Origin: Gemmatimonadota bacterium
GTDB lineage: Bacteria > Desulfobacterota > Deferrimicrobia > Deferrimicrobiales > Deferrimicrobiaceae
DNA length: 52,746 nucleotides
NCBI GenBank assembly: GCA_050257455.1
Contig: JBLMWX010000036.1
Location: 1-52,746, forward strand
Direction: 5' to 3'
Of this stretch, positions 3,657 to 50,822 are shown piece by piece. The translations under genes and the position numbers were made by a program. The notes beneath the pieces are model-generated. The model saw only the letters and a list, made by a program, of their open reading frames with translations, searched no databases and was not told the origin of the DNA. The first letter of the stretch is position 1. Each line of letters opens with the position of its first letter.

Positions 3657-6146
3657 CTATCCTTTCCGCCGCGGGACGAGCGCGGTCGACACCTTCGTCG
3701 TCGCGAACCGGTCCGGGGGCAGGGGGACGCCCAGGAGCGCGGTCGCCGCGTCGAGCGGCCGGACGCCCCTGCCGGTCCCCTGTACGATTGTAATGAAGAG
3801 GGATTCCCCGATCACCTGGAAATTCGGCACCAGGGGCTTCAGGTCGACCGCGGTCTGCCGGCCCTCGCGCGCCGGCGCCGCGGGGACGGCGTCCGCGGTC
3901 CGGAGGGCGTCGAGGGCCCGGGCGACGCTCTCGGGTCCGGCTTCCTCGGGGAGGCGGTTCGGGGGAACGGGATCGATCCGGTATTCGGAGACCAGGTCGA
4001 AGTCGGCGAGGCGCGCTTCCCCGGGGGCGAGGAGGCGGGCGTCGAGCGGCGCGATTCCCGGCGGAAGACAGGCCGGCAGCCGCTTCATCAGGTCGTGGAC
4101 GACCGTCGGGCGCGCGAAATCCGCCTCCACGAACTCGGCGAGACTCTCCGTGCCCACGGGAAGGGCCGGAGAGAACGAGAGGCGGGGGGCCGGGTTGAAT
4201 CCCTGGCTGTAGGCGGGCGTGAACCCGGCGCGCCGCAGCGCCCGCGCCCACAGGGACTGGATCTCGAGCCCGCTCAGGTAGCGCGCCGGCCCCTCCTTGG
4301 CGTACCGGATCCGGACCCGGAAGCGCGCCAGCGGTGCCGGAGGCGTCTCCGCTGAAGCGCGGCGCTCCGGCAGCCCGTCCTCGGGCGGGGGCGGCTCGAA
4401 CGTGACGTTGGCCAGCCCCGGCGGACACGCCCCGCACGCCGAGCAGGGGCCCTTGCGGCAGTCCGGCGTCGCTTCGCCTTCCCGGGCTTTGCGCCGTTCC
4501 GCGAGGAGGAAGTCCCGGTCGATCCCGGCGTCCACCGTGTCCCAGGGAAGGGGCTGCCCCGGCGCCCGCTCCCGCAGGTATTCCGCCGGGTCGATCCCGG
4601 CGTCCGCGAACGCCTGGCGCCAGGCGTCCTGGCGGAGCTCCTCGGTCCAGGCGTCGAACCGCGCCCCGCGGCGCCATGCGGCGATCAGGACCGCGGACAG
4701 CCTGTCGTCGCCGCGCGAAAAGACGCCCTCGAGCTCGGACATGGCCGGCGCGTGGAATTTCACCTCGGCGTTCCGGTCCCGTCCGACCGCGCTCTTGACG
4801 AGGCGGACCCGCTCCTCGATCTCCTCCCGCCCGATCTGGCGCTCCCACTGGAACGGCGTGTGCGGCTTGGGAACGAACGCGGACAGGCTCGCCGTCACCG
4901 TGTTGCGCTTCCCGTGGCGCCGCGCGACGGCGGCGACCCGGCGGACGAGATCCCCGATCGCGCGGACGTCCTCCGCCGTCTCGCCGGGGAGGCCGACCAT
5001 GAAGTAGAGCTTGAGGGTCCGCCACCCGTTGGCGAAGATCCAGTCGGCCGTCCGGAACAGTTCCTCGTCGCGGATCTCCTTGTTGACCGCGCGGCGGAGA
5101 CTCTCGGTGCCCGCTTCCGGAGCGAGCGTGAACCCGGTCTTGCGGACCCTGCGGATCTGGCGCACGGTGTTCTCCCGAAGGGCGTCCAGCCGCAGGGACG
5201 GCAGCGACACGGAGACCCGCTCGGGCGAGAGCGTTTCCATCGCTTCGGTGATCAGGCGGTCGATGCACCCGTAGTCGGCGGCGGACAGGGAGAGCAGGCC
5301 CACCTCGTCGTAGCCCGTCGCGGCCGCCGTCTTCTGGAGGTAGCGCAGCAGGAGGAGCGGGTCGCGCTCGCGGACGGGCCGGTAGACGTAGCCGGCCTGG
5401 CAGAAGCGGCACCCGCGGGTGCAGCCCCGGGAGATCTCGACGCTCAACCGGTCGTGGACGATCCGCATCGCCGGCAGGATGGGGGCCGGCAGCAGGGGAG
5501 AGCGCGCCAGGTCCGGAAGCACCCGGCGGACGACGCGCGCGGAGACGCCGGGGACGAAGACCCCCTCGATCCGCGAGAGGCCGCGCAGCAGATCGGTCCG
5601 GGTGCCGCCCGACCGCTTCCGCTCCCGGACGCGGTCGAGGATCTCGATGATCGCCTCCTCCCCGTCGCCGACGAGGAGGGCGTCGAAGAAGGCGGCGACG
5701 GGCGCGGGGTTCATCGTGCAGACGCCCCCGCCCAGGACGAGGGGATCGTCCTCGCCGCGCTCCGCGGCGAGAAGCGGTATGCCCGCGAGATCCAGCATGG
5801 CCAGCACGTTGGTGTACGTGAGTTCGTACGACAGCGAGAATCCCACGACGTCGAATTCCCGCGCGGGGTGGCCGGACTCGAGGGAGCGGAGCGGCGTCCC
5901 GCTCTCCTTCAGGTGCGCTTCCATGTCCCGCCACGGGGCAAAGGCGCGCTCGCAGAGCGTCCCGGGCCGGGCGTTGAGAATCTCGTGCAGCAGCAGGATT
6001 CCCAGGTGGGACATGCCGATCTCGTAGACGTCCGGGAAGGCGAGGAGCGTCCTGGTCTCCGCCGATTCCCAGGGGATCGACGGCTTCCGGACCTCGCAGC
6101 CGGAATAGCGCGACGGCTTCTGGATCGCGTGCGGAATGCTCTGCAT
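3657..6146 (-). CDS. B12-binding-domain radical SAM protein fused to a DUF2344/TIGR03936-like C-terminal domain (TIGR03960-type)
   Basis: 829 aa with a CxxxCxxC cluster motif in EISRGCTRGCRFCQAGYVYRP. The long C-terminal extension (RFRVRIRYAKEGPARYLSGLE...) is typical of the radical-SAM-associated DUF2344 domain. Confidence 0.85.
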   Translation of the reverse strand: MQSIPHAIQKPSRYSGCEVRKPSIPWESAETRTLLAFPDVYEIGMSHLGILLLHEILNARPGTLCERAFAPWRDMEAHLKESGTPLRSLESGHPAREFDVVGFSLSYELTYTNVLAMLDLAGIPLLAAERGEDDPLVLGGGVCTMNPAPVAAFFDALLVGDGEEAIIEILDRVRERKRSGGTRTDLLRGLSRIEGVFVPGVSARVVRRVLPDLARSPLLPAPILPAMRIVHDRLSVEISRGCTRGCRFCQAGYVYRPVRERDPLLLLRYLQKTAAATGYDEVGLLSLSAADYGCIDRLITEAMETLSPERVSVSLPSLRLDALRENTVRQIRRVRKTGFTLAPEAGTESLRRAVNKEIRDEELFRTADWIFANGWRTLKLYFMVGLPGETAEDVRAIGDLVRRVAAVARRHGKRNTVTASLSAFVPKPHTPFQWERQIGREEIEERVRLVKSAVGRDRNAEVKFHAPAMSELEGVFSRGDDRLSAVLIAAWRRGARFDAWTEELRQDAWRQAFADAGIDPAEYLRERAPGQPLPWDTVDAGIDRDFLLAERRKAREGEATPDCRKGPCSACGACPPGLANVTFEPPPPEDGLPERRASAETPPAPLARFRVRIRYAKEGPARYLSGLEIQSLWARALRRAGFTPAYSQGFNPAPRLSFSPALPVGTESLAEFVEADFARPTVVHDLMKRLPACLPPGIAPLDARLLAPGEARLADFDLVSEYRIDPVPPNRLPEEAGPESVARALDALRTADAVPAAPAREGRQTAVDLKPLVPNFQVIGESLFITIVQGTGRGVRPLDAATALLGVPLPPDRFATTKVSTALVPRRKG

Positions 6147-6169
6147 CCTTCTACAATCCCAATATATTT

Positions 6170-6198
6170 TTGAAAAATCAACGCGCTCACGTTAAATT
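6170..6198 (+). promoter_or_regulatory. Candidate sigma70-type promoter for the NTPase-kinase gene
   Basis: TTGAAA, a 17-nt spacer, then TAAATT, inside an AT-rich divergent intergenic region. It lies about 37 nt upstream of the GTG at 6235. Confidence 0.35.
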
Positions 6199-6234
6199 AT
6201 GCGGTGAACACGGCGACGGGGGCGAAAGGCATCG

Positions 6235-8532
6235 GTGCGTCTCATGTGGAGCCAGGGGGCTGAGGTCGCCTTCCGCGAAGACGAGTTCTTCGGCCGGGAG
6301 GCGGAGCTGACGGCCCTGCTGCGCGTGGGCCTCGAAGGGCGGACCGGCATCGGGGCGTCCGTGCTCATCTACGGGCGGCCCAACATCGGGAAGTCGTCCC
6401 TCCTGCTCAAGACGAAGGCGGATCTCCAGTCGCTCCCCGAAGGGACGGCGCTTCCCCGGCCGTTCCCGTTCTACTACTCCTTCAGCAAGATCCTGTCCCA
6501 CCCGCTCGCGCTCTCCCAGCACTTCCTCCAGGAATACATGTGGCAGCTCCTCGCGTTCCTCGGCGAAGAGCCGCAGGCCGCCTTCGATCCCGAGGCGATG
6601 TGCGAGGCGCTGGGCAGCCACGGCCTTGCCGGCTGCGGCGACTTCGTCGCCGCCCACCGGAAATACTCGGACGCGGGAGACGGGCTCTCCGCGCTGGCCA
6701 ACGCCTTCTCCTTTCCCTTCACGACCGGGGGAAAGGAGTTCTACCCGGTGTTCCTGCTCGACGACTTCCAGTACACGATCAAGCTGCAGAACATTCCCGA
6801 CGGGGCCATATTCTCCATCCTGCGGCCCTACATCAAGTCCGGCCACTTCCCGATGATCGTGTCGGGCTCCTCGCCCGGGCACGTGACGTCCTCCCTCAAG
6901 CGCGAGGGGCTGTACGGCTCCTTCCAGCTGATCGAGGTCGGCGGGATTTCCCCCGAGGCGTCGGTGAGGATGTGGGCCTCCCTGTTCGAGAAGCGCCAGG
7001 TCCGGATGCCGGATCACCTGCTTTCGCGGGCCGGGGAGCGCCTCGGCCACGTGCCGATCTACCAGCGCATGTTCGCGGAGGACCTCTCCTTCCGGAACGC
7101 CCAGGTGACCGACGACGTCGGTTTCGAGAACATGTACGCCCTGTCCGTCACGGAAGGCAAGCTCAACCGCTACTGGCGGGAGTTCTTCGAGAACGCCTTC
7201 CCGGCGCGGTCCCAGAGGGCCAGGGCCGTCCGGTTCCTGAAGCGGGTCCTGTGCGACCGGTTCCCGATCGATTCCGTCGAGGGGGCGCTCTCCCTCATGG
7301 GGGCGCCGCCGGAGGAGGGAATGGACGTCCTGTCGGGCCTCGAGTTCAAGGGGCTCATCAAGTCCGACTTCGAGCACATCGACTTCGTCGACGACCCGGT
7401 CCTGGCGGATTTTCTCTACTGGGCCTTCGAGCGCGGCGTCCTCGGCAGGAGCCCGTCCCAGACGGCCGCGGCGATCGTCCAGGCCAAGCTGTCCCGGGTC
7501 GCCCTCGAGGCCGGCGGCGGAGAGCGCGACAGGCGGGCCGCCGCGGCCAAGGAGCTCTTGCGGCGGTGGGACTGCCGCGAGGTCCCGGCCGTGCTGTTCG
7601 ACTTCGCGAGATTCCGGGACAAGTACGGGGGGAAGGGCCTCCTCGAGGTCGTGATCGGACTGGGCGAGGAGGCCGACAAGGTGCGCCTGCCCAAGATCAG
7701 CTCCGTCTCGACGGGCTACCGGACGCGGCGGGGCGGCGCACGGTTCGACTTCGACCTCGTCGCCTACGGGTTCCGGGACGGCGACTTTTCGGAAGCGAAC
7801 CTGGTGATCTGGGCGGTGGACGTCTGCGTCGAGAGGACGCTCGCGAAGCTCGAGGTCGAGCATTTCGAAAACCGGTGCCGCCTCCTCGCGATCGAGAAGG
7901 GTCTCCGGGAGGACCAGCTCCGGAAGTGGATCCTCTTCGACGGCTCCGCGGAGCAGGCCGCGCTCGAGGCCGCCGCGCGCTTCGGCATCCACCTCACCCA
8001 CGGCGCGCAGGTGCGCCTCTTCCTCAACCTCTTCGGGATGGAGGACATCGGCGGGGGCGCGCCGCCGCCCCCGGCGCCGGACTCCGCGGCGCAGGACCGG
8101 CCCCTCGAATTCGAGCTTGTCCTGCCGATCAAGTCGGAGACGGAGGTCGTCGCGGCGCGCGTGGCGGAGGAGGTGGCGGGCTACGCGTCGCTGGACAAGG
8201 ACACGGTGGACCGCGTGAAGATGGCGATCATCGAGGCGTGCATCAACGCCTTCGAGCACAGCGGCGTCGCGACGGGAAAGGTCAGGCTCCGTTACGTCCT
8301 GTCGCCGGGAAAGATCGAGCTCTTCGTCCAGGACGAGGGGAAGGGGTTCCGCGCCGACGGGAAGGAGCCCGACTCCCGGCGCAACCGGGGATGGGGGTTG
8401 AAACTGATCCGCGAACTGGTGGATGATGTGGAGGTCGCGACGGGGGACGCGGGAACCACCGTCCGGATGGTGAAGTATTTCGGGCGCGATACCGCCGCGG
8501 GCGCGACGAAGACGCCGGACGCCGAGGAGTGA
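6235..8532 (+). CDS. P-loop NTPase (Arch_ATPase/AAA_16-like) fused to a C-terminal RsbW/SpoIIAB-type GHKL serine-kinase (anti-sigma-like) domain
   Basis: 765 aa with a GTG start. Walker A is GRPNIGKS (nt 6373-6396) and VFLLDD is Walker B-like. The C-terminal ~125 aa (nt ~8104-8480) carry an N box (EACINAFEH), G1 (DEGKGF) and G2 (GWGLKLI). Confidence 0.8.
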   Translation: MRLMWSQGAEVAFREDEFFGREAELTALLRVGLEGRTGIGASVLIYGRPNIGKSSLLLKTKADLQSLPEGTALPRPFPFYYSFSKILSHPLALSQHFLQEYMWQLLAFLGEEPQAAFDPEAMCEALGSHGLAGCGDFVAAHRKYSDAGDGLSALANAFSFPFTTGGKEFYPVFLLDDFQYTIKLQNIPDGAIFSILRPYIKSGHFPMIVSGSSPGHVTSSLKREGLYGSFQLIEVGGISPEASVRMWASLFEKRQVRMPDHLLSRAGERLGHVPIYQRMFAEDLSFRNAQVTDDVGFENMYALSVTEGKLNRYWREFFENAFPARSQRARAVRFLKRVLCDRFPIDSVEGALSLMGAPPEEGMDVLSGLEFKGLIKSDFEHIDFVDDPVLADFLYWAFERGVLGRSPSQTAAAIVQAKLSRVALEAGGGERDRRAAAAKELLRRWDCREVPAVLFDFARFRDKYGGKGLLEVVIGLGEEADKVRLPKISSVSTGYRTRRGGARFDFDLVAYGFRDGDFSEANLVIWAVDVCVERTLAKLEVEHFENRCRLLAIEKGLREDQLRKWILFDGSAEQAALEAAARFGIHLTHGAQVRLFLNLFGMEDIGGGAPPPPAPDSAAQDRPLEFELVLPIKSETEVVAARVAEEVAGYASLDKDTVDRVKMAIIEACINAFEHSGVATGKVRLRYVLSPGKIELFVQDEGKGFRADGKEPDSRRNRGWGLKLIRELVDDVEVATGDAGTTVRMVKYFGRDTAAGATKTPDAEE

Positions 8533-8538
8533 GCCGCC

Positions 8539-8892
8539 GTGAGCTATCTGACCGTCGAGTCCCGCGAGGTGAACGGAACCCGGATCCTGTACCTGAACGG
8601 CTACCTGAACAGCCTTCTCGGCGAAGAGGTCGCGAGGATGGTCGGGGCGGTCCTCGATGCCGGGGGAGAGCGCGTCCTGCTCAACTTCGAGGGGACCAGG
8701 CTCATCAACAGCATCGGCATCTCGTTCATCATCGGCGCCGTCGAGAGGATGGCGGCGCGGAACGGGACGCTCGCGTTCTGCTCGCTGTCTCCCATCAACC
8801 GCGAGCTCTTCCGGATCACCGGGGTCGCGCGGGACGTCAGGTCCTTCCGGACCGAGGACGAGGCGCTCGCCTGGCTCGGCCGGCGCGCCTAG
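8539..8892 (+). CDS. STAS-domain anti-sigma-factor antagonist (SpoIIAA/RsbV-like)
   Basis: 117 aa; the GTG start is 6 nt after the upstream stop codon. The motif LLNFEGTRLINSIGISFIIG places Ser58 (nt 8710-8712) at the position of the phosphorylated Ser in SpoIIAA/RsbV. Confidence 0.85.
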   Translation: MSYLTVESREVNGTRILYLNGYLNSLLGEEVARMVGAVLDAGGERVLLNFEGTRLINSIGISFIIGAVERMAARNGTLAFCSLSPINRELFRITGVARDVRSFRTEDEALAWLGRRA

Positions 8893-8961
8893 CCGGCCGC
8901 CCGGCATCCCGCCGGCGCGCGGGTCGACCCGGGGCCGGGAAGAGCGGCCCGGAAAGCGCGT

Positions 8962-9891: not shown

Positions 9892-10557
9892 TTGCAGAAG
9901 CTCAAGATCCAGATCGACAATCACATGACACTCCGCGAGAAGATCGTGGAAACGGTGCGCAGCGCCATCGTCAACGGGCACCTGCCGGCCGGGACGCGCG
10001 TCGCGGAGCCCGAGCTCGCGGACCGGTTCGGCATCAGCCGGACCCCCATCCGCGAGGCCTTCCGGCAGCTCGAGTCCGAAGGGTTCATCACGGTGGTCCC
10101 CCGGAAGGGCGCCGTCGTGGCGTCTCTCTCGGCGAACGACGTGTCCGACTTCTACGACCTCAAGGCCCTCCTCGAAGGGTACGCCGCGCGCTGCGCCGCC
10201 AGAAAGCTGACCGAGAAGGATCTCTCCAAGATGGAGTCGGTGAACCGCCAGATGGAGCTGGCTGCCGCCAGGAAGGACCTCCGGAAGGTCCTGACGCTCC
10301 ACAACGAGTTCCACGACGTCTTCCTCACCGCGTGCGGCAACGAGAAGCTCCACGCCCTGGTCCAGAGCCTCGTCATGCAGTTCCAGCGGTTCCGCCTCAT
10401 CCTCGCGATGCCGGGGCGCATCGAGGGTTCCATCAAGCAGCACCGCGAGATCATCGACGCCTTCCGGAAGCAGGACGGGGCCCTCGCCGAGGCGCTCGTC
10501 CAGAAGAACGCCATCTACGGGAAGAAGATCCTGCTCCGGGAACTCGCCAAGGGGTGA
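9892..10557 (+). CDS. GntR-family transcriptional regulator with FCD (FadR C-terminal-like) domain
   Basis: The winged helix reads EPELADRFGISRTPIREAFRQLESEGFI, followed by an all-helical C-terminal domain. The start is TTG at 9892; an alternative ATG lies at 9925. Confidence 0.85.
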   Translation: MQKLKIQIDNHMTLREKIVETVRSAIVNGHLPAGTRVAEPELADRFGISRTPIREAFRQLESEGFITVVPRKGAVVASLSANDVSDFYDLKALLEGYAARCAARKLTEKDLSKMESVNRQMELAAARKDLRKVLTLHNEFHDVFLTACGNEKLHALVQSLVMQFQRFRLILAMPGRIEGSIKQHREIIDAFRKQDGALAEALVQKNAIYGKKILLRELAKG

Positions 10558-10569
10558 TCCGGGCCGGTC

Positions 10570-11991
10570 ATGCCCGACGCGGACGCACTTCGCCGGATCC
10601 CGTCCGTCGCCTTTCTCCTCGAAACCGCTGACGTCAGGACGCTCCTGGGGCGACACCCGCGCGCGGTGGTCGTGGACGCCATCCGGAAGGGCCTCTCCGC
10701 GATGCGGCTGGAGGCGGTCCGTTCGGGCGGCGCGGAGGCGCGCACCCGGGAGGAGTGGGCGTCGGCGCTCATCGCCCGGCTGCCCGCGGACATCGCGGCG
10801 GCCGAGGGGATCCCCTTCAGGCCGGTGATCAACGCGACCGGAATCGTCATCCATACCAACCTCGGGCGCGCCCCGCTGGCGGAGGAGGCGGTGCGGGCGG
10901 TCTCCCGGACGGCGGGGCGGTACGCGAACCTGGAGTACGACCTCGACGCCGGGCGACGCGCGACGCGGGTCTCCCTCGTGGAGGAGGCGATTCTCGCGCG
11001 CACGGGGGCCGAGGCCGCGCACGTGGTCAACAACAACGCCGCGGCGGTGCTCCTGTGCCTCGCGGGGCTCGCGCGCGGCAGGGACGTTATCGTGAGCCGG
11101 GGAGAGCTCGTCGAGATCGGCGGGTCGTTCCGGATCCCGGACATCATGGCCGAAAGCGGCGCGAATCTCGTCGAGGTGGGAACTACCAACCGCACGAGGA
11201 TCGCGGACTACGAGCGGGCGGCGGGGCCACGGACCGCGCTTCTCCTCAAGGTCCACCGGTCCAACTTCAGCATGTCCGGCTTCATCGAGGAGGCATCCGC
11301 CGCCGACCTCGCCGCCCTGGGGGGGCGCCTCGGAATCCCGGTCATGGAGGACCTCGGCTCGGGGGCGCTGTTCGATTTCCAGGCGGCGGGGATTCCCGGA
11401 ACGCCGACGGTCCGGCAGGCGCTGGCGGCGGGGCCGGGGATCGTGACCGTCAGCGGCGACAAGCTCCTGGGGGGGCCCCAGGCCGGAATCATCGTGGGGA
11501 GCAGGGCTCTCGTCCTCCCCCTGCGAAGGCACCCCCTGTCGCGCGCCTTGAGGGTGGACAAGCTGTGCCTGGCCGCGCTGGCCGCCACGCTGGGTCTGTA
11601 CGCCGACGAGAGGCAGGCGGCCGCCCGGGTCCCGGTCCTGCGGATGATGACCGAGCCCGAGAGCGGGGTGCGCGCCCGCGCGAGGCGGCTTGTCCGGCTG
11701 GCGGGGCGGCCCGGCGGCGGCGCCGGGGACCTCGTCCTGACGGTGGAGCGCGGGCTCTCCTCGCCGGGGGGCGGCGCGATGCCGGACGTCGGGATCCCCA
11801 CGGCGTGCGTCGCGGTGTCCCATCCGGCCGTTCCGGTCGAGGAGCTCGAGGCGAGGCTCCGGAAAGGGACCCCGCCCGTGGTGGCGCGGATCGCGAAGGG
11901 CAGGCTCCTTCTCGACATGCGCACCGTGGGCGCCGGGGAACTCAGGGATCTCGCGGCCGCTCTGGTCGCGGCCGGGGAAAGCCGGCCTTGA
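10570..11991 (+). CDS. selA: L-seryl-tRNA(Sec) selenium transferase
   Basis: 473 aa with INATGIVIHTNLGRAPL, VNNNAAAVLL, VSRGELVEIGGSFRIPDIM and SGDKLLGGPQAGIIVG (the PLP lysine). Confidence 0.9.
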   Translation: MPDADALRRIPSVAFLLETADVRTLLGRHPRAVVVDAIRKGLSAMRLEAVRSGGAEARTREEWASALIARLPADIAAAEGIPFRPVINATGIVIHTNLGRAPLAEEAVRAVSRTAGRYANLEYDLDAGRRATRVSLVEEAILARTGAEAAHVVNNNAAAVLLCLAGLARGRDVIVSRGELVEIGGSFRIPDIMAESGANLVEVGTTNRTRIADYERAAGPRTALLLKVHRSNFSMSGFIEEASAADLAALGGRLGIPVMEDLGSGALFDFQAAGIPGTPTVRQALAAGPGIVTVSGDKLLGGPQAGIIVGSRALVLPLRRHPLSRALRVDKLCLAALAATLGLYADERQAAARVPVLRMMTEPESGVRARARRLVRLAGRPGGGAGDLVLTVERGLSSPGGGAMPDVGIPTACVAVSHPAVPVEELEARLRKGTPPVVARIAKGRLLLDMRTVGAGELRDLAAALVAAGESRP

Positions 11992-12045: not shown

Positions 12046-12642
12046 ATGCTCAACTCCGGCGTTCTCGTTCTGAACAGGGCCTTCTTCCCGGTCCACGTGA
12101 CGAGCGCCCGCAGGGCGTTCTGCCTGCTCTACGCGGGCCTCGCGCGGGCCGTCACGCCCCAGTACGAGCTTTTCGACTTCAAGTCGTGGAGCGATCTCTC
12201 CGCCCGCGCCGGTGACGACGCCGTCGGCCTCGTCGGGAGAATGATCCGGGTCCCCCGCGTGGTCGTCCTGACCGCGTACGACAGGATCCCGCGGCGCACG
12301 GTGCGGTTCAGCCGCCGCAACATCTTCATCCGCGACCGGAACACCTGCCAGTACTGCGGGAAGTCGCACGCGACCGCCGAGCTCAATCTCGACCACGTGA
12401 CCCCGAGGTCCCGGGGCGGGGCGACGAGCTGGGAGAACATCGTCTGCAGCTGCCTGCCGTGCAACAAGCGGAAAGGGGGACGGCTTCCCGACGAGGCGGG
12501 GATGCGCCTGGTCGGGAGGCCGTCGAGGCCGCACTGGGCGCCGCAGTACGCGTTCTCGCTCCGCTCCCCGATCCACAAGGAGTGGCTTCCGTTCCTCAAC
12601 CTGGTCGACGTGACGTACTGGAACCTCGAGCTCGAGGCCTGA
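12046..12642 (+). CDS. HNH endonuclease family protein
   Basis: 198 aa with CQYCG...DHVTPRSRGGATSWENIVCSCLPCNKRK, an HNH motif with zinc-binding cysteines. Confidence 0.85.
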   Translation: MLNSGVLVLNRAFFPVHVTSARRAFCLLYAGLARAVTPQYELFDFKSWSDLSARAGDDAVGLVGRMIRVPRVVVLTAYDRIPRRTVRFSRRNIFIRDRNTCQYCGKSHATAELNLDHVTPRSRGGATSWENIVCSCLPCNKRKGGRLPDEAGMRLVGRPSRPHWAPQYAFSLRSPIHKEWLPFLNLVDVTYWNLELEA

Positions 12643-13583: not shown

Positions 13584-15281
13584 ATGTCGGTGATGGCGAC
13601 CAAGATCGGTGAAATGCTTTTAAAGGGAAACGTTATCAGTCCGGATCAGCTCCGGACCGCGCTCGAAACACAGAAGCGGACGAAGGAGCGGATCGGGACG
13701 GTCCTCGTCAAGTCCGGCTTCATCAAGGAGCCGGAGCTCCTCTCGTTCATCGGGCGGCAGTTCAACGTTCCCGTGGTCGATCTGTCCAAGTACGAGATCA
13801 ATCCCGAGGTCGTCCGCCTCCTGCCCGAGGACATGGTCCAGAAGAACCTCGCCCTGCCCATCAACAGGGTGGGCGCCAAGCTCATCGTCGCCGTGGCGGA
13901 CCCGTCCAACATGGCCATCCTGGATGCCATCGGGTTCAAGACCGGCTACGCGGTCGAGCTCGTCCTCGCCTCGGAAAAGGACATCACGACCGCCATCAAC
14001 AAGTTCTTCGACCGGTCCCTCGAGTTCAAGGACATCATCGCCGACCTCGACGAGGACCTCGAGGTGGTCCGGGAGGAGGAGGTCGACGTCTCCGAGCTCG
14101 AGCGGGGGATCGACGACGCCCCGGTCGTGAAGCTCGCCAACTTCATCCTGACCGACGCCATCAAGCGGCGGGCGTCGGACATCCACATCGAGCCGTACGA
14201 GAAGGAGTTCAGGGTCCGGTACCGGGTCGACGGCGTGCTCTACGAGACCATGCGGCCGCCCCTCAAGATGAAGAACGCCCTCTCCTCGCGGCTGAAGATC
14301 CTCTCGACGCTCGACATCGCCGAGCGCCGCCTTCCCCAGGACGGCCGGATCAAGCTGAAGATGGGGAAGGGAAGCGAGATGGATTTCCGCGTCTCCGTCC
14401 TGCCGACGATCTACGGCGAGAAGATCGTGCTCCGGCTCCTCGACAAGTCGAGCCTCCAGCTCGACATGACCAAGCTCGGGTTCGAGACGGAGTCGCTCAA
14501 GGACTTCGTGGAGGCGATCCACCGGCCCTATGGAATGGTGCTCGTCACGGGCCCCACGGGCTCGGGGAAGACGACGACGCTCTACTCGGCCCTGTCCGAC
14601 CTGAACAAGACGAGCGACAACATCTCCACCGCGGAGGACCCGGTCGAATACAACTTCGCGGGCATCAACCAGGTGCAGATCAAGGAGGAGATCGGCCTGA
14701 CGTTCGCGGCGTGCCTGCGCTCCTTCCTGCGCCAGGACCCCGACATCATCATGGTGGGCGAGGTCCGGGACTACGAGACCGCCGAGATCGCGGTCAAGGC
14801 GGCCTTGACGGGCCATCTCGTCCTGTCGACCCTGCATACGAACGACGCCCCGAGCACCGTCACCCGTCTCCTCAACATGGGCATCGAGCCGTTCCTCGTC
14901 TCGTCGTCCCTCAACCTCATCCTCGCCCAGCGCCTCGCCCGGAGGGTCTGCCAGAACTGCAGGGAGGATCAGAAGATCCTGCCGAAGGCGCTCGTCGACG
15001 CCGGGATGAAGCCCGAGCGCGTGAAGCTTGCCCGGCCGTCCCGGGGCAAGGGATGCGACGACTGCAACTCCACGGGGTTCCGCGGACGTGTCGCGCTCTA
15101 CGAGGTGATGCCCGTGCGCGAGGAGATCAAGGACCTCGTCCTGCGCGGCGGATCGGCGCTCGAGATCAAGCGGGAGGCGATCCGCCTGGGCATGAAGACC
15201 CTGCGCCAGGCGGGCCTTTCGAAGGTGGAAGAGGGGGTCACCACGCTCGAGGAAGTGCTGCGGGTGACGGCCCCCGATTAA
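13584..15281 (+). CDS. pilB: Type IV pilus assembly ATPase PilB (GspE family)
   Basis: 565 aa with an N-terminal T2SSE_N-type domain, Walker A GPTGSGKTT, and a tetracysteine motif CQNC...CDDC. Confidence 0.9.
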   Translation: MSVMATKIGEMLLKGNVISPDQLRTALETQKRTKERIGTVLVKSGFIKEPELLSFIGRQFNVPVVDLSKYEINPEVVRLLPEDMVQKNLALPINRVGAKLIVAVADPSNMAILDAIGFKTGYAVELVLASEKDITTAINKFFDRSLEFKDIIADLDEDLEVVREEEVDVSELERGIDDAPVVKLANFILTDAIKRRASDIHIEPYEKEFRVRYRVDGVLYETMRPPLKMKNALSSRLKILSTLDIAERRLPQDGRIKLKMGKGSEMDFRVSVLPTIYGEKIVLRLLDKSSLQLDMTKLGFETESLKDFVEAIHRPYGMVLVTGPTGSGKTTTLYSALSDLNKTSDNISTAEDPVEYNFAGINQVQIKEEIGLTFAACLRSFLRQDPDIIMVGEVRDYETAEIAVKAALTGHLVLSTLHTNDAPSTVTRLLNMGIEPFLVSSSLNLILAQRLARRVCQNCREDQKILPKALVDAGMKPERVKLARPSRGKGCDDCNSTGFRGRVALYEVMPVREEIKDLVLRGGSALEIKREAIRLGMKTLRQAGLSKVEEGVTTLEEVLRVTAPD

Positions 15282-20676: not shown

Positions 20677-21780
20677 TTGGATTCCGCCATCGCCCAGTTC
20701 TCCCGGTTTCTGCACGCGGAGCGCAACGCTTCCCCGGAGACGGTGAGGGCCTACCTGCGGGAGGTCGGGGCCCTGCACGCGTTCCTGTCCGGCGGGCGCG
20801 CGGCCGGAGCCGGCGCGGGCCGGCCGGCCGGCGGCGAGACCTTTCCGGGATGGGGCGGCGTCACGGCGTCCGACATTCGCCGCTACGTCGCGTTGCGGCT
20901 TACGGGCCGGAAGGGGACGACGGTGGCGCGGTCCGTCGCGGCCGTCAGGACGTTCTTCTCGTTCCTGGCCGCGCAGGGCGCGGTCCGCGAGAACCCGGCC
21001 GCCGGGATCTGGGCGCCGCGCCGCGAAGACCGGCTCCCCGAGTTCCTCCCCGTCGACGAGATGATGGATCTTCTGCGCTCGCTCCCCGGGGGCGGGGAGC
21101 TCGAGAAGCGGGACGCGGCGATCCTGGAACTGCTTTACTCCTCCGGCCTTCGCGTCGGCGAGCTCGTCGCGCTGCGCCGCGGGGACGTGTCGGCGGCCGA
21201 GGGGACGGCGCGCGTGACGGGGAAGGGGAGGAAGGTGAGGATCGTCCCGGTCGGATCCCAGGCGGTGCGGGCCCTGGCGGCGTACCTGGAGGCGCGCTCT
21301 TCGCGGTTGGCCGCGGCCGACGACGACGCCGACGGGCCGTTGTTCCTCAACGCGCGCGGGGGGAGGCTCTCGGCCCGGAGCGTGGCGCGGATCCTCGAGG
21401 GGGCGCTTGCGCGCGTCGGGGCGAGACGGCGCCTGTCGCCGCACGGGATCAGGCACTCGTTCGCGACGCACCTTCTGGAGTCGGGGGCCGACCTGCGCGC
21501 CATCCAGGAGATGCTGGGGCACGCCTCGCTCTCGACGACCCAGCGGTATGCCCGGGTCAACGTGAGCCACCTCGTCCGCGCCTACGAGGACGCGCATCCA
21601 AGGGCTCGGGCCCGGTCTTCGGGAGGCCCGAGCCCGCAGTCCCGCGATAGCGGGACGAGAGCTCAGCAAATGCCGTCAGGGAGCCCGGGCCCGCAGTCCC
21701 GCGCGAGCGGGACGGAAGCGGGGCGCAGCCGGGGTGGAGCGAGAGCAGGCGCGGGGGCCAAGGGAGGGAAGCGGCCGTGA
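20677..21780 (+). CDS. xerC: Tyrosine recombinase XerC with a ~58-codon non-canonical C-terminal extension
   Basis: TTG start. Motifs [25 protein letters not shown] and [15 protein letters not shown] are present. The canonical ...AHPRA end is at 21606, but the frame stays open until it overlaps the hslV start. Confidence 0.85.
21632..21713. repeat. Two copies of a hairpin-forming direct repeat (REP-like) inside the xerC tail
   Basis: GCCCGCAGTCCCGCG-AGCGGGACG occurs twice, 57 nt apart. Each copy folds as GTCCCGC-(GATA or GCGA)-GCGGGAC, at 21639-21656 and 21696-21713. Confidence 0.7.
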
Positions 21781-22319
21781 CCGAAACCCGGGGAACGACG
21801 ATCGTGGCGGTGTCGCGGAACGGCCGCGTTGCGATGGCGGGCGACGGCCAGGTGACGCTCGGCGCCACGGTTCTCAAACACACGGCGCGGAAGATCCGCC
21901 GGCTTCACGAGGACCGGGTGCTGGCCGGCTTCGCGGGGGCGACCGCGGATGCCTTCACGCTGTTCGAGCGGTTCGAGGGGAAGCTGGGCGAGTTCCGCGG
22001 GAACATGCGGCGGGCGGCCGTCGAGCTCGCGAAGGAGTGGCGGACGGACCGCGTCCTCCGGCGGCTGGACGCGCTCATGGTCGTCACGGACGGGAAGGAT
22101 CTCATGCTCCTATCCGGGGGCGGCGACGTCGTGGAACCCGACGATGGCGCGATCGGGGTCGGGTCCGGGGGACCGTACGCGCTGGCGGCGGCGCGGGCCC
22201 TGCTCCGGCACACGGCGCTGCCCGCCGCCGAGATCGCGCGGGAGGCGCTGATGATCGCCGCGGGGATCTGCGTGTACACCAACGAGAACGCGACGGTCGA
22301 GGAGATCGCGGCGCCGTGA
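21777..22319 (+). CDS. hslV: ATP-dependent protease subunit HslV
   Basis: The GTG start overlaps the xerC stop. A short propeptide, MTETRG, precedes the catalytic TTIVAV. A GGAGG-like AGGGAGGGA lies upstream. Confidence 0.9.
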
Positions 22320-23701
22320 CCGGCGGGAATCCCGGCACGGGCGGGCCGCGCCCCTTGTCGCCCCGCGAGATCGTCGCGGAGCTCGACCGGTTCATCGTAG
22401 GGCAGCGCAACGCGAAGCGCGCGGTGGCGATCGCCCTCCGGAACCGGTGGCGCCGCCGGGAGGTGCCGCAGGAGCTCCGGGAGGAAATCGCGCCGAAGAA
22501 CATCATCATGGTGGGCCCCACGGGCGTCGGGAAGACGGAGATCGCGCGCCGCCTCGCGCGGCTCGCGCAGGCGCCGTTCGTGAAGGTCGAGGCGTCCAAG
22601 TTCACCGAGGTCGGCTACGTGGGCCGCGACGTGGAGGGGATGATCCGCGACCTGGTCGACATCGCGGTCCACATGGTCAGGGCGGAGGAGGAGGAGAAGG
22701 TGGCGGCGCGGGCGCGCGCGGCCGCCGAGGAGCGGCTCCTGGACATCCTGCTTCCCCCGCCGCCCCCTGCGCGGGCGGGGGAAGCGCCTCCCGGGGAGAC
22801 CGGCGAGGGGCGGCCGGGGCGGGAGTCGCGCGAGCGGCTTCGCGCGATGCTTCGCGAGGGAAAGCTCTCCGAGCGGACGGTGGACGTCGAGATCCGCGAG
22901 AGCGCCATGCCCCCGATCGACCTGGTCGGAGTGGCGGGGGCGGGCGAGGGGATCGAGGGGAGCCTGCAGGAGATGCTCGGCGGGCTCTTCCCGAAGAAGG
23001 TGCGCCGGAAGAAGATGAAGGTGCCGGAGGCGATCGCCTTCCTCGAGAAGGAGGAGGCGGCCCGGATGATCGACATGGACCAGGTGAAGCGGATGGCGGT
23101 CGAGCGGACGGAGCAGAGCGGGATCGTCTTTCTCGACGAGATCGACAAGATCGCGGGCCGGGAGTCGGCGGCGGGCCCGGACGTCTCGCGCCAGGGGGTC
23201 CAGCGCGACCTTTTGCCCGTCGTGGAGGGGTCCAACGTGAACACGAAGCACGGGATGGTCCGCACCGACCACATCCTGTTCATCGCGGCCGGGGCGTTCC
23301 ACACGGCGAAGCCGTCCGACCTGGTCCCGGAGCTCCAGGGGCGCTTCCCGATCCGGGTCGAGCTCGACACGCTGACGAAGGGCGACTTCGTGCGCATCCT
23401 GACCGAGCCGCACGGGGCGCTGACCCGCCAGTACGCCGCGCTCCTGGCGACCGAGGGCGTGACGCTCTCCTTCACGCCGGACGCGGTGGACCGGATCGCG
23501 GCCATGGCGTGCGAGGTGAACGACCGGACGGAGAACATCGGCGCGCGGCGGCTGCACACGATCATGGAGAAGCTGCTCGAGGACCTGCTCTTCACGGCCC
23601 CCGAGATCGCGGGCCGGGAGATCGTCATCCCGGCGTCGTACGTGGACGAGAAGCTGGCGGGAATCGTCCGCGACGTGGACATGAGCCGCTACATCCTGTA
23701 G
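22316..23701 (+). CDS. hslU: ATP-dependent protease ATPase subunit HslU
   Basis: A GTGA overlap joins it to the hslV stop. Motifs [36 protein letters not shown] and FLDEIDKI are present. Confidence 0.9.
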
Positions 23702-25803: not shown

Positions 25804-26714
25804 GGAAGGACCTGCTCCGGGTGCTCGACCTGTCGTCCCGCGCGGTCCTGGCCCTCATCGACTCCGGGATCGCGTGGAAGCGCCGGGGTGCCGGCCGGAA
25901 GGCGCCGCGTCCGCTGGCGGGAAGGACGCTGGCGATGATCTTCCAGAAGGCGTCGACGCGGACGCGGGTGTCCTTCGAGGTCGGGATGGCCCGCCTCGGC
26001 GGCCACGCGCTGTTCCTCTCGCCCGCGGACACCCAGATCGGCCGGGGCGAGCCGGTCCGGGACACGGCGCGGGTTCTGTCGCGCTACGTCGACGCGATCC
26101 TGATCCGGACGTTCGCGCACGCGATCGCCGAGGAGATGGCCGCGTCGTCGTCCGTGCCGGTGATCAACGGGCTCACCGACGGCCACCACCCGTGCCAGGT
26201 CCTGGCCGACCTCATGACGGCCCGCGAGCGGGGGATCGACCTGAGGCGGATGACCGTCGCCTTCGTCGGGGACGGCAACAACGTGGCCAACTCGTGGGTC
26301 GAGGCCGCGCAGCTCCTCGGGTTCGCGCTCCGGGTCGCGTGCCCCCGCGGGTTCGAGCCCGACCCGTCCGTCATGCGGGAGGCGGCGCGGGCGGGGAAGG
26401 GCGACGTCCGGATCGTCCGGGATCCCGCGGAGGCCGCGCGGGGCGCCGACGTTCTCTACACGGACGTCTGGACGAGCATGGGACAGGAGAAGGAGCGCCG
26501 CCGGCGCCTGGCCGCCTTCCGCGGCTACCGCATCGACGCAACGCTCCTCCGGGCCGCCCGGAAGGACGCGATCGTCATGCATTGCCTGCCCGCCCATCGC
26601 GGGGAGGAGATCACCGACGAAGTCATGGAAGGGCCGCGATCGGCCGTCTTCGACGAGGCGGAAAACCGGCTTTACGCCCAGATGGCGGTCCTCGAGAAGT
26701 TAATCCCTCACTGA
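25800..26714 (+). CDS. argF: Ornithine carbamoyltransferase
   Basis: An ATGA overlap joins it to the argD stop. Motifs [20 protein letters not shown] and [10 protein letters not shown] are present. Confidence 0.9.
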
Positions 26715-26733
26715 CCCGACGGAGGAGACGGCT

Positions 26734-27942
26734 TTGGGAAACGTGGAGAAGGTGGTGCTCGCGTATTCGGGCGGTCTTGACACGTCCGTGATCCTGCGGT
26801 GGCTCATCGAGACGTACGATTGCGAGGTCGTCGCGTTCGTGGCGGACCTCGGCCAGGGCGAGGAGCTCGGGCCGGTCCGCGCCAAGGCGAAGAGGACGGG
26901 TGCCTCGAAGGTGTACGTGGAGAACGTGCAGGACGAGTTCGTCCGGGATTTCATCTTCCCGGCGCTGATGGCGAACGCGGTCTACGAGGGGCAGTACCTC
27001 CTCGGGACGTCGATCGCGCGCCCCCTGATCGCGAAGAAGCAGATCGAGGTCGTGCGCAGGGAGAAGGCCGACGCGGTGTCGCACGGCTCCACCGGGAAGG
27101 GGAACGACCAGGTCCGGTTCGAGCTCACCTACTACGCCCTGATGCCGGGCATCCGCGTCATCACGCCGTGGCGCGAATGGGACTTCGCGTCGCGTACCGA
27201 CCTCGTGAACTACGCGAAGCGGCACGGAATCCCGACGCCGGTTACCGCGTCCAAGCCGTACTCGAGCGACCGGAACCTCATGCACATCAGCTTCGAGGGC
27301 GGCATCCTCGAGGACCCGGGCGCCGAGCCCCCGAAGGACATGTTCGTCCTGACGCGGTCGCCGGAGAAGGCGCCGGACCGGCCGCAGTACGTCGAGGTCG
27401 ACTTCGTCAGGGGGATCCCGGTCGCGGTCGACGGGAAGAAGATGGGGCCGGCGAAGCTCCTGGGGCATCTCAACCGGATCGGCGGCGTCCACGGGATCGG
27501 CCGGGTGGACCTCGTGGAGAACCGGTACGTGGGGATCAAGTCGCGCGGGGTCTACGAGACCCCCGGCGGGACGATTCTCCATGCCGCGCACCGGGCGGTG
27601 GAGTCGATCACCCTCGACCGGGAAGTCATGCACCTCCGGGATTCGCTGGTCCCGAAGTTCGCCGAGCTCATCTATTACGGCTACTGGTACTCCCCGGAGA
27701 TGGACGTGCTCAAGGGGATGGTCGAGAAGACGCAGGAGAACGTGACGGGCACGGCCCGGCTCAAGCTCTACAAGGGGAACTGCATCGTCGCGGGCCGCAG
27801 GAGCCCGGTGTCGCTCTACCGGACCGATTTCGCGACCTTCGAGAAGGAGACGGTGTTCAACCAGCGCGACGCGGAAGGGTTCGTGAAGATCAACGCGCTG
27901 CGCCTGAAGATCCGGGCGATGCTCAAGGGCAGGAGGGGGTGA
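26734..27942 (+). CDS. argG: Argininosuccinate synthase
   Basis: TTG start 6 nt after GGAGGAG. The motif AYSGGLDTS is present. Confidence 0.9.
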
Positions 27943-38034: not shown

Positions 38035-39663
38035 TCACGCGTCGCGCCGCGCCTGCGCGAGGAGCGCCTCGGCGCCAGCCGTGATCTCCTCCCGGAATGG
38101 CAGGTCCTTGAGCAGTCCCGCGGGGATCGCCGACGCGCCGAGGTAGGCGCCGCAGAGCCCCCCGGCGATCGCCGCGGTCGCCTCGGCGTCGTTTCCCATG
38201 TTGACCGCCGCGAGGACCGCCGCCCCGAAATCGTCGGGGTGGCGCAGGAAGCAGGCCCATCCGAACGGAAGGCCCTCGACGACCGACGGCCCGTTGCCGA
38301 GCGCCTCGCGCACCTCCTCGATCTCGGCGCGGCGCAGGAGGAGAGCGGTCAGCTCGGTGCCGAGCTTCCTCCACAGGGTGGCGTGGATCCGTCCCGATCG
38401 TCCCCGCGACGCGCGGTCGGGCTCGATCCCGGAGATCGCGGGCGACAGCCCCCGCGTGAACCCCAGGACGTCGAGCGCTCCCGGGGGCGTGTGGAGGATG
38501 CGGGCGACGGCGGCCGCCTGGGCGACGGCCCCGGCGATCGACGCGGCGTTCGGGTGCGTGATCGAGGCGTCGATCCCCGCTTCCAGCTTCATCCGCCGGA
38601 AATCCGCCGCCCCGCGGAGCGCGATGGGGGGAACGCGCGCCGCCGGGCCGCTCTCGGGGGCGGCCACGCCGGCCTCGAACCACGGGAACCCGCGCTCGGC
38701 GAGGTTCCGCGCGAACTCCGATCCCGGCGCCGCGGGTGTCCGCCCGGCGGCGCCGGCGTACGCGAGGGCGAGCTTTTCCGGGTCGAGCCGTCCCTCCGTG
38801 AGCAGGTGTCGGGCGAGCAGGAGCGCGGCGGGGGCCGTGGCCGGGCGACGCGGCCCCTCGCGGGCCGCGCGCCGTGCCGGATCGTATCCGTCGATGCGCC
38901 CGTACAGTTCCTGGACGTCGCGCGGGCTCAGCCCCTGCGCCGGCCTGCCGAGCATCCCTCCCGCGGCGGCGCCGAGCAGGGCCCCCCGGAAACGGTCCTT
39001 GTAGTCGATCCCCTGGGAGAACGACTGCGGGACCCCTTCCCCCTTCGACATGTAGGCGGGCACCTTTCCCCGCCGGACCAGGAACTGGTAGATGGCCTCG
39101 GGTTCCTTCTCGAACAGGAGCGGCTGGTCGGCCTCGCGGCGCGCCTGCTCGTGGACCTTCCGCTCGGCCATGCCCGCGAGGGCCTTGAGCGTGTCCCAGA
39201 AATCCTCGTTGCCCTGGAGCGGGATCTTCGGAAGCAGCTTGAGAAGGCTCGCGACGATCTCGTCGCGGTCGTCGATCGCGAGGGGGGCGGCAGGGGTCTC
39301 TCCGGGCGGTGGCGCCGCCGCGCCCCGGGAGTCATTCGGCTCCTGCTTCGGCCCATTGTCCCCGGAACGCGCTCCGTCCTCCGCCGTGGCCGCCGCCGCC
39401 GGGCCGGCGCCCCGCGGGTAGGCGCACCCGTGGTATTCCATGATCTTCTGCGTCTGGGCGGCGGAAAACCGCATGGACTGCAGGATCGCGAGGAGAGTCT
39501 CGGTCCGCGGGATTCTCCCCGTGTAGACGACTTGTCTCAGAAGCTCGTAGCTCAGCCCGAGGTTTTCGCGGTCCGCGTGGAACTTCCTGAGGGAGGCGTA
39601 GCCGAGGGTTTCAAGCCGCTTCCTCAGAACCTTCGAAAGGAGAGTTCGTCCATCGTCTGCCAT
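38035..39663 (-). CDS. HTH-domain protein fused to an ADP-ribosylglycohydrolase (ARH/DraG)-family domain with degenerate metal-site motifs
   Basis: 542 aa. The N-terminal ~85 aa are HTH-like (LRKRLETLGYASLRKFHADRENLGLSYELLRQVVYTGRIP), followed by an Ala/Pro/Gly-rich linker. ARH motifs present: RFRGALLGAAAGGMLG, SITHPNAASIAGAVAQAAA and AVNMGNDAEATAAIAGGLCGAYLGASAIP. Confidence 0.7.
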   Translation of the reverse strand: MADDGRTLLSKVLRKRLETLGYASLRKFHADRENLGLSYELLRQVVYTGRIPRTETLLAILQSMRFSAAQTQKIMEYHGCAYPRGAGPAAAATAEDGARSGDNGPKQEPNDSRGAAAPPPGETPAAPLAIDDRDEIVASLLKLLPKIPLQGNEDFWDTLKALAGMAERKVHEQARREADQPLLFEKEPEAIYQFLVRRGKVPAYMSKGEGVPQSFSQGIDYKDRFRGALLGAAAGGMLGRPAQGLSPRDVQELYGRIDGYDPARRAAREGPRRPATAPAALLLARHLLTEGRLDPEKLALAYAGAAGRTPAAPGSEFARNLAERGFPWFEAGVAAPESGPAARVPPIALRGAADFRRMKLEAGIDASITHPNAASIAGAVAQAAAVARILHTPPGALDVLGFTRGLSPAISGIEPDRASRGRSGRIHATLWRKLGTELTALLLRRAEIEEVREALGNGPSVVEGLPFGWACFLRHPDDFGAAVLAAVNMGNDAEATAAIAGGLCGAYLGASAIPAGLLKDLPFREEITAGAEALLAQARRDA

Positions 39664-45477: not shown

Positions 45478-45545
45478 CATCCCGCCGACCGGGATGATAT
45501 GAATTGCCGTTACGCTCCGCAGACCGCCCGCGCCAGGAGGGAAGG

Positions 45546-49130: not shown

Positions 49131-50822
<1,692 letters not shown>

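Follow-up and report, generated by a model that had tools for sequence, protein, structure and literature searches.

Partner switching is one of the main forms of signalling logic in bacteria; PP2C phosphatases usually provide its input, and sigma factors are the outputs known best. Two systems of Pseudomonas aeruginosa lead to enzymes of cyclic di-GMP (c-di-GMP) metabolism: HptB-HsbR-HsbA-HsbD, in which HsbR is a REC-PP2C-kinase protein, and SiaABCD, in which SiaA is a PP2C phosphatase, SiaD is a cyclase and SiaC is not a canonical STAS protein. In the former, the STAS protein HsbA binds the cyclase HsbD (PMC5085249). The locus described here lies on contig JBLMWX010000036.1 of assembly GCA_050257455.1, whose 52,746 nucleotides are referred to as the window, and it consists of two adjacent genes, one for a 765-amino-acid (aa) fusion of an AAA+ ATPase to an RsbW-type kinase and one for a STAS protein. 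The pair serves signalling and is no system for defence or surveillance. The reading preferred here, held with moderate confidence, is that the two proteins form a partner-switching pair in which an ATPase-gated kinase would act on the STAS protein, and that the output of the family would be c-di-GMP turnover and not a sigma factor.

The fusion protein and its STAS partner

The fusion gene runs from 6235 to 8532 on the forward strand (+) from a GTG start, with an alternative in-frame ATG at 6244 that gives 762 aa, and its product is ordered as AAA+ ATPase, lid, winged helix, helical region, restriction-endonuclease-like domain, linker and RsbW-type kinase. The kinase is a GHKL serine-kinase domain of the SpoIIAB/RsbW type (aa 624-748; 8104..8478, +), an assignment based on HATPase_c_2, the alignment with RsbW and the fold. 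The HATPase_c_2 profile matches aa 639-747 (E 6.7e-23, 81.5 bits) well above its cut-off of 27.4, which confirms the view of the first-pass annotation that an RsbW-type kinase is appended to the C-terminus of a large P-loop ATPase. The N box (EACINAFEH), G1 box (VQDEGKGF) and G2 box (RGWGLKLI) align with those of RsbW (6m36, E 1.3e-9), and the predicted domain lies on SpoIIAB and RsbW structures (1til, 1th8, 1l0o, 6m36, 6m37) with target-normalised TM-scores of 0.75-0.89 in Foldseek. These motifs are kept in about 141 of 157 matches, the remainder resembling matches to off-frame open reading frames (ORFs), and the N and G2 boxes are practically invariant among relatives. NCBIfam returns only sub-threshold matches to RsbW, SpoIIAB and RsbA (33-50 bits vs RsbW/SpoIIAB equivalog cut-offs of 135-155); the kinase of the fusion protein is of SpoIIAB/RsbW type at the domain level but not at the equivalog level.

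Six nucleotides after the fusion stop, another GTG opens the gene for a single-domain STAS protein of 117 aa (8539..8892, +), and the earlier sequence-level statements on the 765-aa ORF, the gap and the 117-aa ORF all stand. A Shine-Dalgarno-like GAGGAG (8524..8529, +) is found 9 nt ahead of this GTG, and its placement inside the end of the kinase gene suggests that the two genes may be translationally coupled. The STAS profile PF01740 matches with E 3e-11 and 43.5 bits (cut-off 22.6), and the anti-sigma-antagonist family TIGR00377 reaches 38.7 bits, under its cut-off of 53.45. Ser58 (codon AGC, 8710-8712) aligns with Ser58 of Bacillus subtilis SpoIIAA (1auz, E 4e-7), which bears out the earlier proposal that it corresponds to the phosphorylated serine of SpoIIAA/RsbV; the structure chain 1tid_B has an alanine at the equivalent position. 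Across 118 STAS partners, the motif N57-[S/T]58-x-G60-x-S62 retains N57, G60 and S62 in all 118, with serine at position 58 in 110 and threonine in the other 8. As judged from sequence, the kinase domain keeps its ATP-binding motifs and the STAS protein keeps a candidate phospho-acceptor serine.

An AlphaFold2 model of the fusion protein, with a mean predicted local distance difference test (pLDDT) score of 79, places the AAA+ core at about aa 17-235 and the lid, which is helical and comes with a winged-helix-like element, at about aa 240-385. A helical connector occupies aa 388-477 and an alpha/beta domain aa 482-600, and a Pro/Ala-rich linker, disordered over aa 605-621, leads to the GHKL domain. 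The P-loop ATPase core (6283..6939, +) is identified by AAA_16, Foldseek and its Walker motifs. AAA_16 matches aa 17-179 with E 8.7e-8 and 33.3 bits, barely over the cut-off of 32.6, and ATPase_2 remains sub-threshold for the window protein at 22-26 bits (22.3 in one scan) vs 33.2; the latter profile is recorded for many orthologues and for 14/60 long-form and 22/28 short-form distant relatives. Walker A (GRPNIGKS, aa 47-54; 6373-6396, +) and Walker B (VFLLDD, aa 172-177; 6748-6765, +) are canonical in 31/31 aligned orthologues of 47-89% identity. In this alignment G47, P49, G52 and K53 are invariant, as are D176 and D177, and conservation spans the full length of the protein. The lid, winged-helix-like element (about aa 345-385) and connector, delimited by the secondary structure of the model (6952..7665, +), have no Pfam match.

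The best PDB match of the N-terminal half in Foldseek is the Pyrococcus abyssi "Walker-type ATPase" PABY2304 (2qen, E 6e-9), followed by Orc1/Cdc6 and RuvB, and the structural alignment with 2qen and Orc1 runs over some 410-440 columns. The NTPase is thus predicted to be an AAA+ protein of the ATPase_2/Orc1-Cdc6 kind, and the first-pass annotation's Orc/Arch_ATPase-like P-loop module was well placed, given the AAA_16 match, the canonical Walker motifs and the 2qen/Orc1 fold. Its further description of the protein as a STAND-like NTPase was not borne out, as the best fold match is 2qen and a repeat sensor is lacking: Pfam scans and the model reveal no repeat domain of the TPR, WD40 or LRR type in the fusion protein. 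Among the structural neighbours of the ATPase part, which are AAA+ proteins of the initiator and clamp-loader type, a plant NLR appears once, at rank 24, and nSTAND/NACHT Pfam matches occur in only 2/60 long-form and 4/28 short-form distant relatives.

The alpha/beta domain (7678..8034, +) is predicted to have a restriction-endonuclease-like fold, according to the model and Foldseek. A separate model of aa 436-606 reached a pLDDT of 92.5 and a predicted TM-score (pTM) of 0.88, and its structural matches are marginal, ranging from E 3e-4 to 1e-2 across MspJI (E 3.4e-4), AF1548 (E 3.8e-4), Card1/Can2/Cdn1, Rpb5-N and Mus81, with query-normalised TM-scores of 0.35-0.48 for MspJI, AF1548, Card1, Can2 and Rpb5-N. 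Only the clade of the window protein keeps the acidic residues D505, D507 and D529, and the domain is therefore read as probably a nuclease fold without catalysis; the residues invariant family-wide are just P451, W526, W565 and Q592. The central region gave no Pfam match even at E 10, and no match to the DUF234 profile. The PD-(D/E)xK-like patch noted earlier therefore survives at the level of the fold, through the marginal Foldseek matches, but neither DUF234 nor conserved catalytic residues accompany it. An active PD-(D/E)xK nuclease or a DUF234 domain was rejected on the blank Pfam search, the match at fold level only and the catalytic residues that are not kept. The low-complexity linker that follows (8047..8097, +) has pLDDT values below 50, is rich in indels in the orthologue alignment and differs in length among orthologues.

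Conserved pairing and the c-di-GMP cassette

A word-indexed search returned 127 proteins, mostly full-length at about 765 aa, from metagenome-assembled genomes (MAGs) labelled Deltaproteobacteria, Thermodesulfobacteriota or Candidatus (Ca.) Deferrimicrobiaceae, a family that NCBI taxonomy places within the phylum Ca. Deferrimicrobiota. Gene order was followed in annotated contexts (L001-L005 and L007) and in a same-lineage sample of 54 loci from species-representative genomes (L010-L063). The fusion gene is always divergent from a radical-SAM/DUF2344 gene and RNase G, and GntR, SelA, shikimate dehydrogenase and pilB-pilT-pilC are encoded downstream of it. This housekeeping synteny is fixed across orthologues of 46-89% identity, and the locus appears to be a stable, vertically inherited part of it and not an island. 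The ratio of nonsynonymous to synonymous substitution rates (dN/dS) of the fusion gene against orthologues is 0.15-0.22, and the gene is under purifying selection.

The first-pass annotation had raised the question of whether the fusion always co-occurs with a STAS gene, and the pairing proves to be conserved, in the lineage of the window as well as in distant relatives. A STAS gene lies directly downstream of the fusion in 46/48 same-lineage loci with enough downstream DNA. Where the protein ends before the kinase domain (P0119 and P0120, at L003 and L060), there is no STAS gene. The P0108 lineage (L005, L055) keeps the kinase without a STAS gene beside it, and its kinase domain is 61-66% identical to those of its sisters vs 73-77% among the sisters, with the other domains not faster; in this one lineage, the kinase domain alone has diverged faster where the STAS protein is missing. 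In P0106 (L004, 8001-10295), an out-of-frame, Arg-rich stretch of about 150 aa stands at the C-terminus in place of the kinase, and the STAS gene is still downstream. This protein was rejected as a kinase-less fusion since the alignment reveals a frameshifted C-terminus, which is either a frameshift error or the mark of a recent pseudogene.

Beyond this lineage, an exhaustive HMMER search with aa 1-620, the kinase domain being left out, yielded 193 cluster representatives, which include a long form (700-830 aa, 20-29% identical over some 590 aa) and a short form of about 550 aa that does not contain the nuclease-fold domain. HATPase_c_2 is present in 58/60 long-form and 16/28 short-form proteins, and the ATPase-kinase fusion is therefore old and widespread. 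The source labels, which are MAG labels, include Pyrinomonadaceae and Terriglobia (Acidobacteriota), Thermodesulfobacteriota and Moduliflexota, and the product names of these relatives are merely "ATP-binding protein" or "RsbW". A metagenome scan gave 80 more loci and at least 568 confirmed relatives, and upstream and downstream genes were tallied with local hidden Markov models (HMMs) among the loci listed; the resulting adjacency counts are not corrected for shared ancestry, and the cassette that they describe recurs in unrelated flanking contexts.

In relatives at 20-30% identity, this cassette has the order PocR-GAF-GGDEF cyclase, ATPase-kinase, STAS protein and HD-GYP phosphodiesterase. 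For the distant long form, a STAS gene is downstream in 41/44 loci and HD-GYP follows STAS in 29/32, and for the short form these counts are 11/11 and 7/7, making 52/55 and 36/39 for the distant loci combined; orthologues of the window type in the same scan have STAS in 5/5 and HD-GYP in 0/4. The gene upstream of the fusion is co-directional in 55/56 loci and encodes a PocR-GAF-GGDEF protein in 50/52. Beyond HD-GYP, the next gene is on the opposite strand in 27/39 loci, which indicates that the cassette ends at HD-GYP. At the other end, the consensus gene before the cyclase is an OppF/DppF-type ABC ATPase; a fifth cassette gene upstream of GGDEF, possibly a PP2C, was considered and rejected, as this ABC ATPase reflects lineage synteny.

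The gene-called contexts agree with these tallies. In L064, L066 and L067, a called STAS gene lies between the fusion and the HD-GYP gene (with GAF or HDOD regions), and in L065, where no STAS gene is called, the local HMM detects STAS in the gap before HD-GYP. Of the six gene-called contexts that hold HD-GYP, five have an overlap of 4-26 nt between the end of STAS and the beginning of HD-GYP, the sixth being L065. Thus the third gene that co-varies with the pair, a further question raised by the first-pass annotation, is an HD-GYP phosphodiesterase gene whose start overlaps the STAS stop. At L064, the PocR-GAF-GGDEF gene (4487-6670, +) also overlaps the fusion start, by 20 nt, and a PilZ-domain gene (10358-10732, -) abuts the HD-GYP gene, so that enzymes for making and for degrading c-di-GMP would meet a candidate receptor at this one locus. 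Both HDxGK and HHExxDGxGYP are intact in 57/60 HD-GYP proteins, and GG[DE]EF plus the RxxD I-site in 47/52 cyclases, from which the HD-GYP and GGDEF enzymes of the cassette look active. HD-GYP is kept where GGDEF is absent, as in L066, L067 and the Deferrimicrobiota loci.

Within Ca. Deferrimicrobiota, a cyclase is never present at the locus, and HD-GYP is present in part of the phylum. At L001 and L007, whose fusion proteins are 83% and 49% identical to that of the window, a gene for 427-434 aa overlaps the end of STAS, and the signature HHE..DGSGYP identifies its product as an HD-GYP protein. Such a gene occurs in 12/54 species loci, among them the clade that diverges most (46-50% identity) and some members of the 70% clade. 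The window, its nearest relative L010 and the entire 65% clade do not have it; this pattern of presence and absence implies several independent losses. In the window itself, the STAS stop is followed by a 69-bp gap (8893..8961) and a convergent TIM-barrel gene where HD-GYP would stand, and tblastn of the whole window with two HD-GYP orthologues found no remnant (best E 0.3). The 31 window ORFs scanned, which include 20 further ORFs elsewhere in the window and leave a few aside under a rough gene calling based on GC content at third codon positions (GC3), contain no PP2C, sigma factor, GGDEF, EAL or HD-GYP gene, and the earlier remark that neither a sigma factor nor a phosphatase is nearby has held. 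The window copy is most simply read from these comparisons as a two-gene remnant of a larger cassette that has lost its HD-GYP gene. Purifying selection still acts on its kinase-STAS pair. The "unknown output" of the first-pass annotation consequently no longer applies to the family, which has HD-GYP as its third gene and, in distant relatives, a cyclase upstream, but it does still apply to the copy in the window.

A proposed switch and its rivals

In the proposed mechanism, the kinase would phosphorylate Ser58 of the co-translated STAS protein, and the N-terminal part, made up of the AAA+ module, the winged helix and a presumably dead nuclease fold, would gate the kinase via the flexible linker. 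Nucleotide- or ligand-dependent assembly would then determine at what times the kinase acts or is available to hold the STAS protein. Unphosphorylated STAS would bind and regulate the HD-GYP phosphodiesterase encoded right after it, and perhaps the cyclase too, with the upstream PocR-GAF-GGDEF cyclase providing the opposing activity. This mechanism is favoured by the domain make-up, by ATP-binding motifs that are intact in both nucleotide-binding modules in the clade of the window, by the serine or threonine found at the phospho-acceptor position of every STAS partner, by the co-inheritance and co-loss of kinase and STAS, by the recurrent HD-GYP/GGDEF cassette, by the purifying selection on the fusion gene and by the precedent of HsbA and HsbD (PMC5085249). 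The pair in the window has outlived the loss of HD-GYP and would therefore most likely act on something encoded elsewhere in the genome, be it a new partner or another HD-GYP or c-di-GMP protein.

Several points weigh against this proposal. The phosphorylation, the binding of STAS to HD-GYP and the gating by the ATPase are all inferred. The window contains neither HD-GYP nor GGDEF, and the whole subclade at about 65% identity keeps kinase and STAS alone, from which it follows that HD-GYP is not the sole or obligatory target. No PP2C phosphatase was found in any annotated cassette context or upstream of the GGDEF gene in the neighbourhoods scanned, which would leave the switch without its usual reset enzyme, and a sigma factor may be encoded elsewhere. 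At the residue level, the G1-box aspartate is present in the window and variable in distant members, and the Walker A lysine is kept in 38/60 distant long-form proteins (alanine in 12, serine in 4), with the first Walker B aspartate in 59/60. Part of the family may thus bind nucleotide without hydrolysis, and with about one third of the distant long-form proteins having no Walker A lysine, ATP hydrolysis by the AAA+ module would not be universally required. Lastly, the dN/dS of the STAS gene against L001 is just 0.57.

A more far-reaching version, speculative and rather unlikely, makes the four-gene cassette a self-contained c-di-GMP homeostat, in which the AAA+/nuclease-fold part would sense c-di-GMP or the ATP/ADP ratio, its assembly would set STAS phosphorylation, and STAS would switch back and forth between phosphodiesterase and cyclase; in Ca. 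Deferrimicrobiota, the orphan pair would have been rewired, for example to PilB. MshEN domains bind c-di-GMP. PilB is encoded 4.7 kb downstream of the module (window 13584-15281, +), and its orthologues carry an MshEN domain. At L003 (9923-11413), the kinase-less homologue runs into the start of a gene for a T2SSE ATPase, with genes for pseudopilins coming next. For the preferred reading too, these are no more than hints, and they may reflect a functional link of the module to pili or secretion, or plain synteny.

Returning to the partner switch with c-di-GMP output, its most conventional rival is a classical anti-sigma module, in which the RsbW-like domain holds a sigma factor from elsewhere, STAS releases it, and HD-GYP and GGDEF are merely co-regulated. 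Such a module would agree with the closest sequence and fold matches of the C-terminal domain, which are the true anti-sigma factors RsbW, SpoIIAB and RsbA, and with the persistence of the pair without HD-GYP in the window and many relatives. It is nevertheless quite unlikely, since no sigma factor gene stands beside the pair in 10 Pfam-annotated contexts, in the HMM tallies of 134 further loci or among the 31 window ORFs, the NCBIfam scores are far under the equivalog cut-offs, and the overlap of STAS stop and HD-GYP start points to a stoichiometric partnership. A different rival keeps c-di-GMP and moves the target: the switch would act on the diguanylate cyclase, as in HsbA-HsbD and SiaC-SiaD, or HD-GYP would be the missing phosphatase that resets phospho-STAS. 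HD domains are phosphohydrolases, and PP2C is absent although a reset enzyme is expected. The PocR-GAF-GGDEF gene is upstream in nearly all distant loci, and the characterised precedents involve cyclases (PMC5085249; PMC8457831). Against this, HD-GYP is tied to the pair more tightly than GGDEF, being kept where GGDEF is absent and overlapping STAS, and the HD-GYP proteins retain the complete signature of c-di-GMP phosphodiesterases. No HD-GYP protein phosphatase is known, and on balance this second rival is improbable.

Very improbable is an anti-phage or conflict surveillance NTPase with an AAA+/STAND-like sensor, a nuclease-fold effector, and kinase and STAS as regulators. The resemblance of the central domain to the nuclease domains of MspJI, Card1/Can2, Avs3 and HamA, together with the weak nSTAND/NACHT Pfam matches of a few distant relatives, would lend itself to such a system. 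Neither protein, however, matches PADLOC-DB at E 0.1, the locus holds its conserved position among radical SAM/RNase G, GntR, SelA and pilBTC, the catalytic acidic residues are not kept family-wide and the short form does without the nuclease-fold domain, and the recurrent neighbours are c-di-GMP enzymes with no defence genes among them. The surveillance module envisaged in the first-pass annotation is not borne out, and a defence system was rejected as a candidate, in both cases on the PADLOC result, the housekeeping context and the nuclease-like domain without conserved catalytic residues.

Neighbouring features and comparison with described systems

Upstream of the fusion gene, a sigma-70-like promoter candidate (TTGAAA-17-TAAATT; 6170..6198, +) sits in an 88-bp AT-rich divergent intergenic region; it is a consensus match only and not evidence of function, and the scan observed 2 sites vs 0.2 expected from shuffles. 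No terminator-like site was found after STAS, and in an Rfam scan of the window one tRNA was the sole RNA element matched. At the window start, a C-terminal fragment of a tyrosine-integrase-like ORF (11-232, +) lies beside tRNA-Thr(CGT) (411-485, -), and phage-like genes occupy the corresponding place in relatives (Gp77 in L001, D5_N/DUF5906 primase in L004), which suggests a hotspot of integration linked to the tRNA. Between SelA and shikimate dehydrogenase, a gene for an HNH endonuclease of 198 aa (12046-12642, +) is shared with L001 and L004 and absent from L002 and L005, and it thus represents a variable insertion within an otherwise fixed synteny. Further along, a XerC/XerD-type tyrosine recombinase (20677-21780, +; Phage_integrase plus a SAM-like N domain) precedes an AAA_2/ClpB_D2-small ATPase (21734-23701), and the two probably represent xerC-hslU. 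The ADP-ribosylglycohydrolase of 542 aa at 38035-39663 (-) matches its Pfam domain only from aa 227, leaving some 226 N-terminal residues unmatched. Three long ORFs (25874-26791, 44244-45497 and 49190-50926, all +) have no Pfam match at E 1e-4 and may be real orphan genes or wrong-frame ORFs in high-GC sequence.

The regulation of HD-GYP enzymes is poorly understood. The present family would offer a new input and output for partner switching, as its kinase is hard-wired to an AAA+ module and its partners are HD-GYP and a sensor cyclase in at least four phyla by MAG labels. If the proposed switch is true, it would provide a dedicated protein-level regulator of HD-GYP enzymes and a new coupling of nucleotide state to c-di-GMP; the homeostat, if true, would add a new class of partner switch on an AAA+ scaffold without a PP2C reset enzyme. 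The compact cassette is suited to reconstitution, and the reduced pair of the window is a natural experiment on the role of the pair once the enzymes are gone. There is also a lesson for annotation in that such proteins are labelled just "ATP-binding protein" or "RsbW". No description of the AAA+-kinase/STAS architecture was found in the searchable literature, in a search that was incomplete and does not exclude prior work, and a published census of HD-GYP architectures mentions neither STAS nor anti-sigma proteins; the c-di-GMP control cassette is apparently undescribed.

Compared with described systems, the locus shares with SpoIIAB-SpoIIAA and RsbW-RsbV of Bacillus a GHKL HATPase_c_2 domain with N, G1 and G2 boxes, a single-domain STAS protein with an aligned serine, and adjacent, apparently translationally coupled genes. 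Unlike SpoIIAB and RsbW, the kinase of the window forms the C-terminal 140 aa of an AAA+ protein of 765 aa, neither a sigma factor nor a PP2C is co-encoded, and the conserved third gene of the family encodes an HD-GYP enzyme. Over the N-terminal 400 or so residues, the AAA+ core, lid and winged helix are those of ATPase_2 proteins (PF01637; PABY2304, 2qen) and Orc1/Cdc6, and the nuclease-fold domain that follows in the window protein recalls the layout of ATPase_2 plus DUF234. It differs from these in scoring under the ATPase_2 cut-off, in having no DUF234 profile match and in carrying a C-terminal kinase.

RsbW-type kinases with STAS partners and non-sigma outputs are also represented by SypE-SypA of Vibrio fischeri and BtrW-BtrV of Bordetella, whose kinases are multidomain or stand-alone (PMC10120452, PMC8256260, PMC7498569). 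Unlike the window protein, these kinases occur together with PP2C and REC domains, as partners or in one chain, lead to polysaccharide synthesis or type III secretion, and are not known to be fused to an AAA+ ATPase. In HptB-HsbR-HsbA-HsbD, a STAS anti-anti-sigma protein under an RsbW-type kinase likewise meets a c-di-GMP enzyme, in a system tied to type IV pili and motility (PMC5085249), but there is no AAA+ fusion, the enzyme is a cyclase and HD-GYP is absent, while the window has neither enzyme. In SiaABCD, a kinase and a phosphatase reportedly set the phosphorylation of a small switch protein that binds and activates a c-di-GMP enzyme (PMC8457831). SiaABCD is not known to include an AAA+ module. 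Co-encoded GGDEF or HD-GYP enzymes in the manner of HsbA-HsbD and SiaABCD are absent from the window and present in its relatives at the frequencies given above (36/39 for HD-GYP and 50/52 for GGDEF in distant loci, 12/54 for HD-GYP in the same lineage). HsbR/HsbA/HsbD and SiaABCD are therefore the closest functional analogues of the family, which is set apart from both by its AAA+-fused kinase and by its proposed HD-GYP output.

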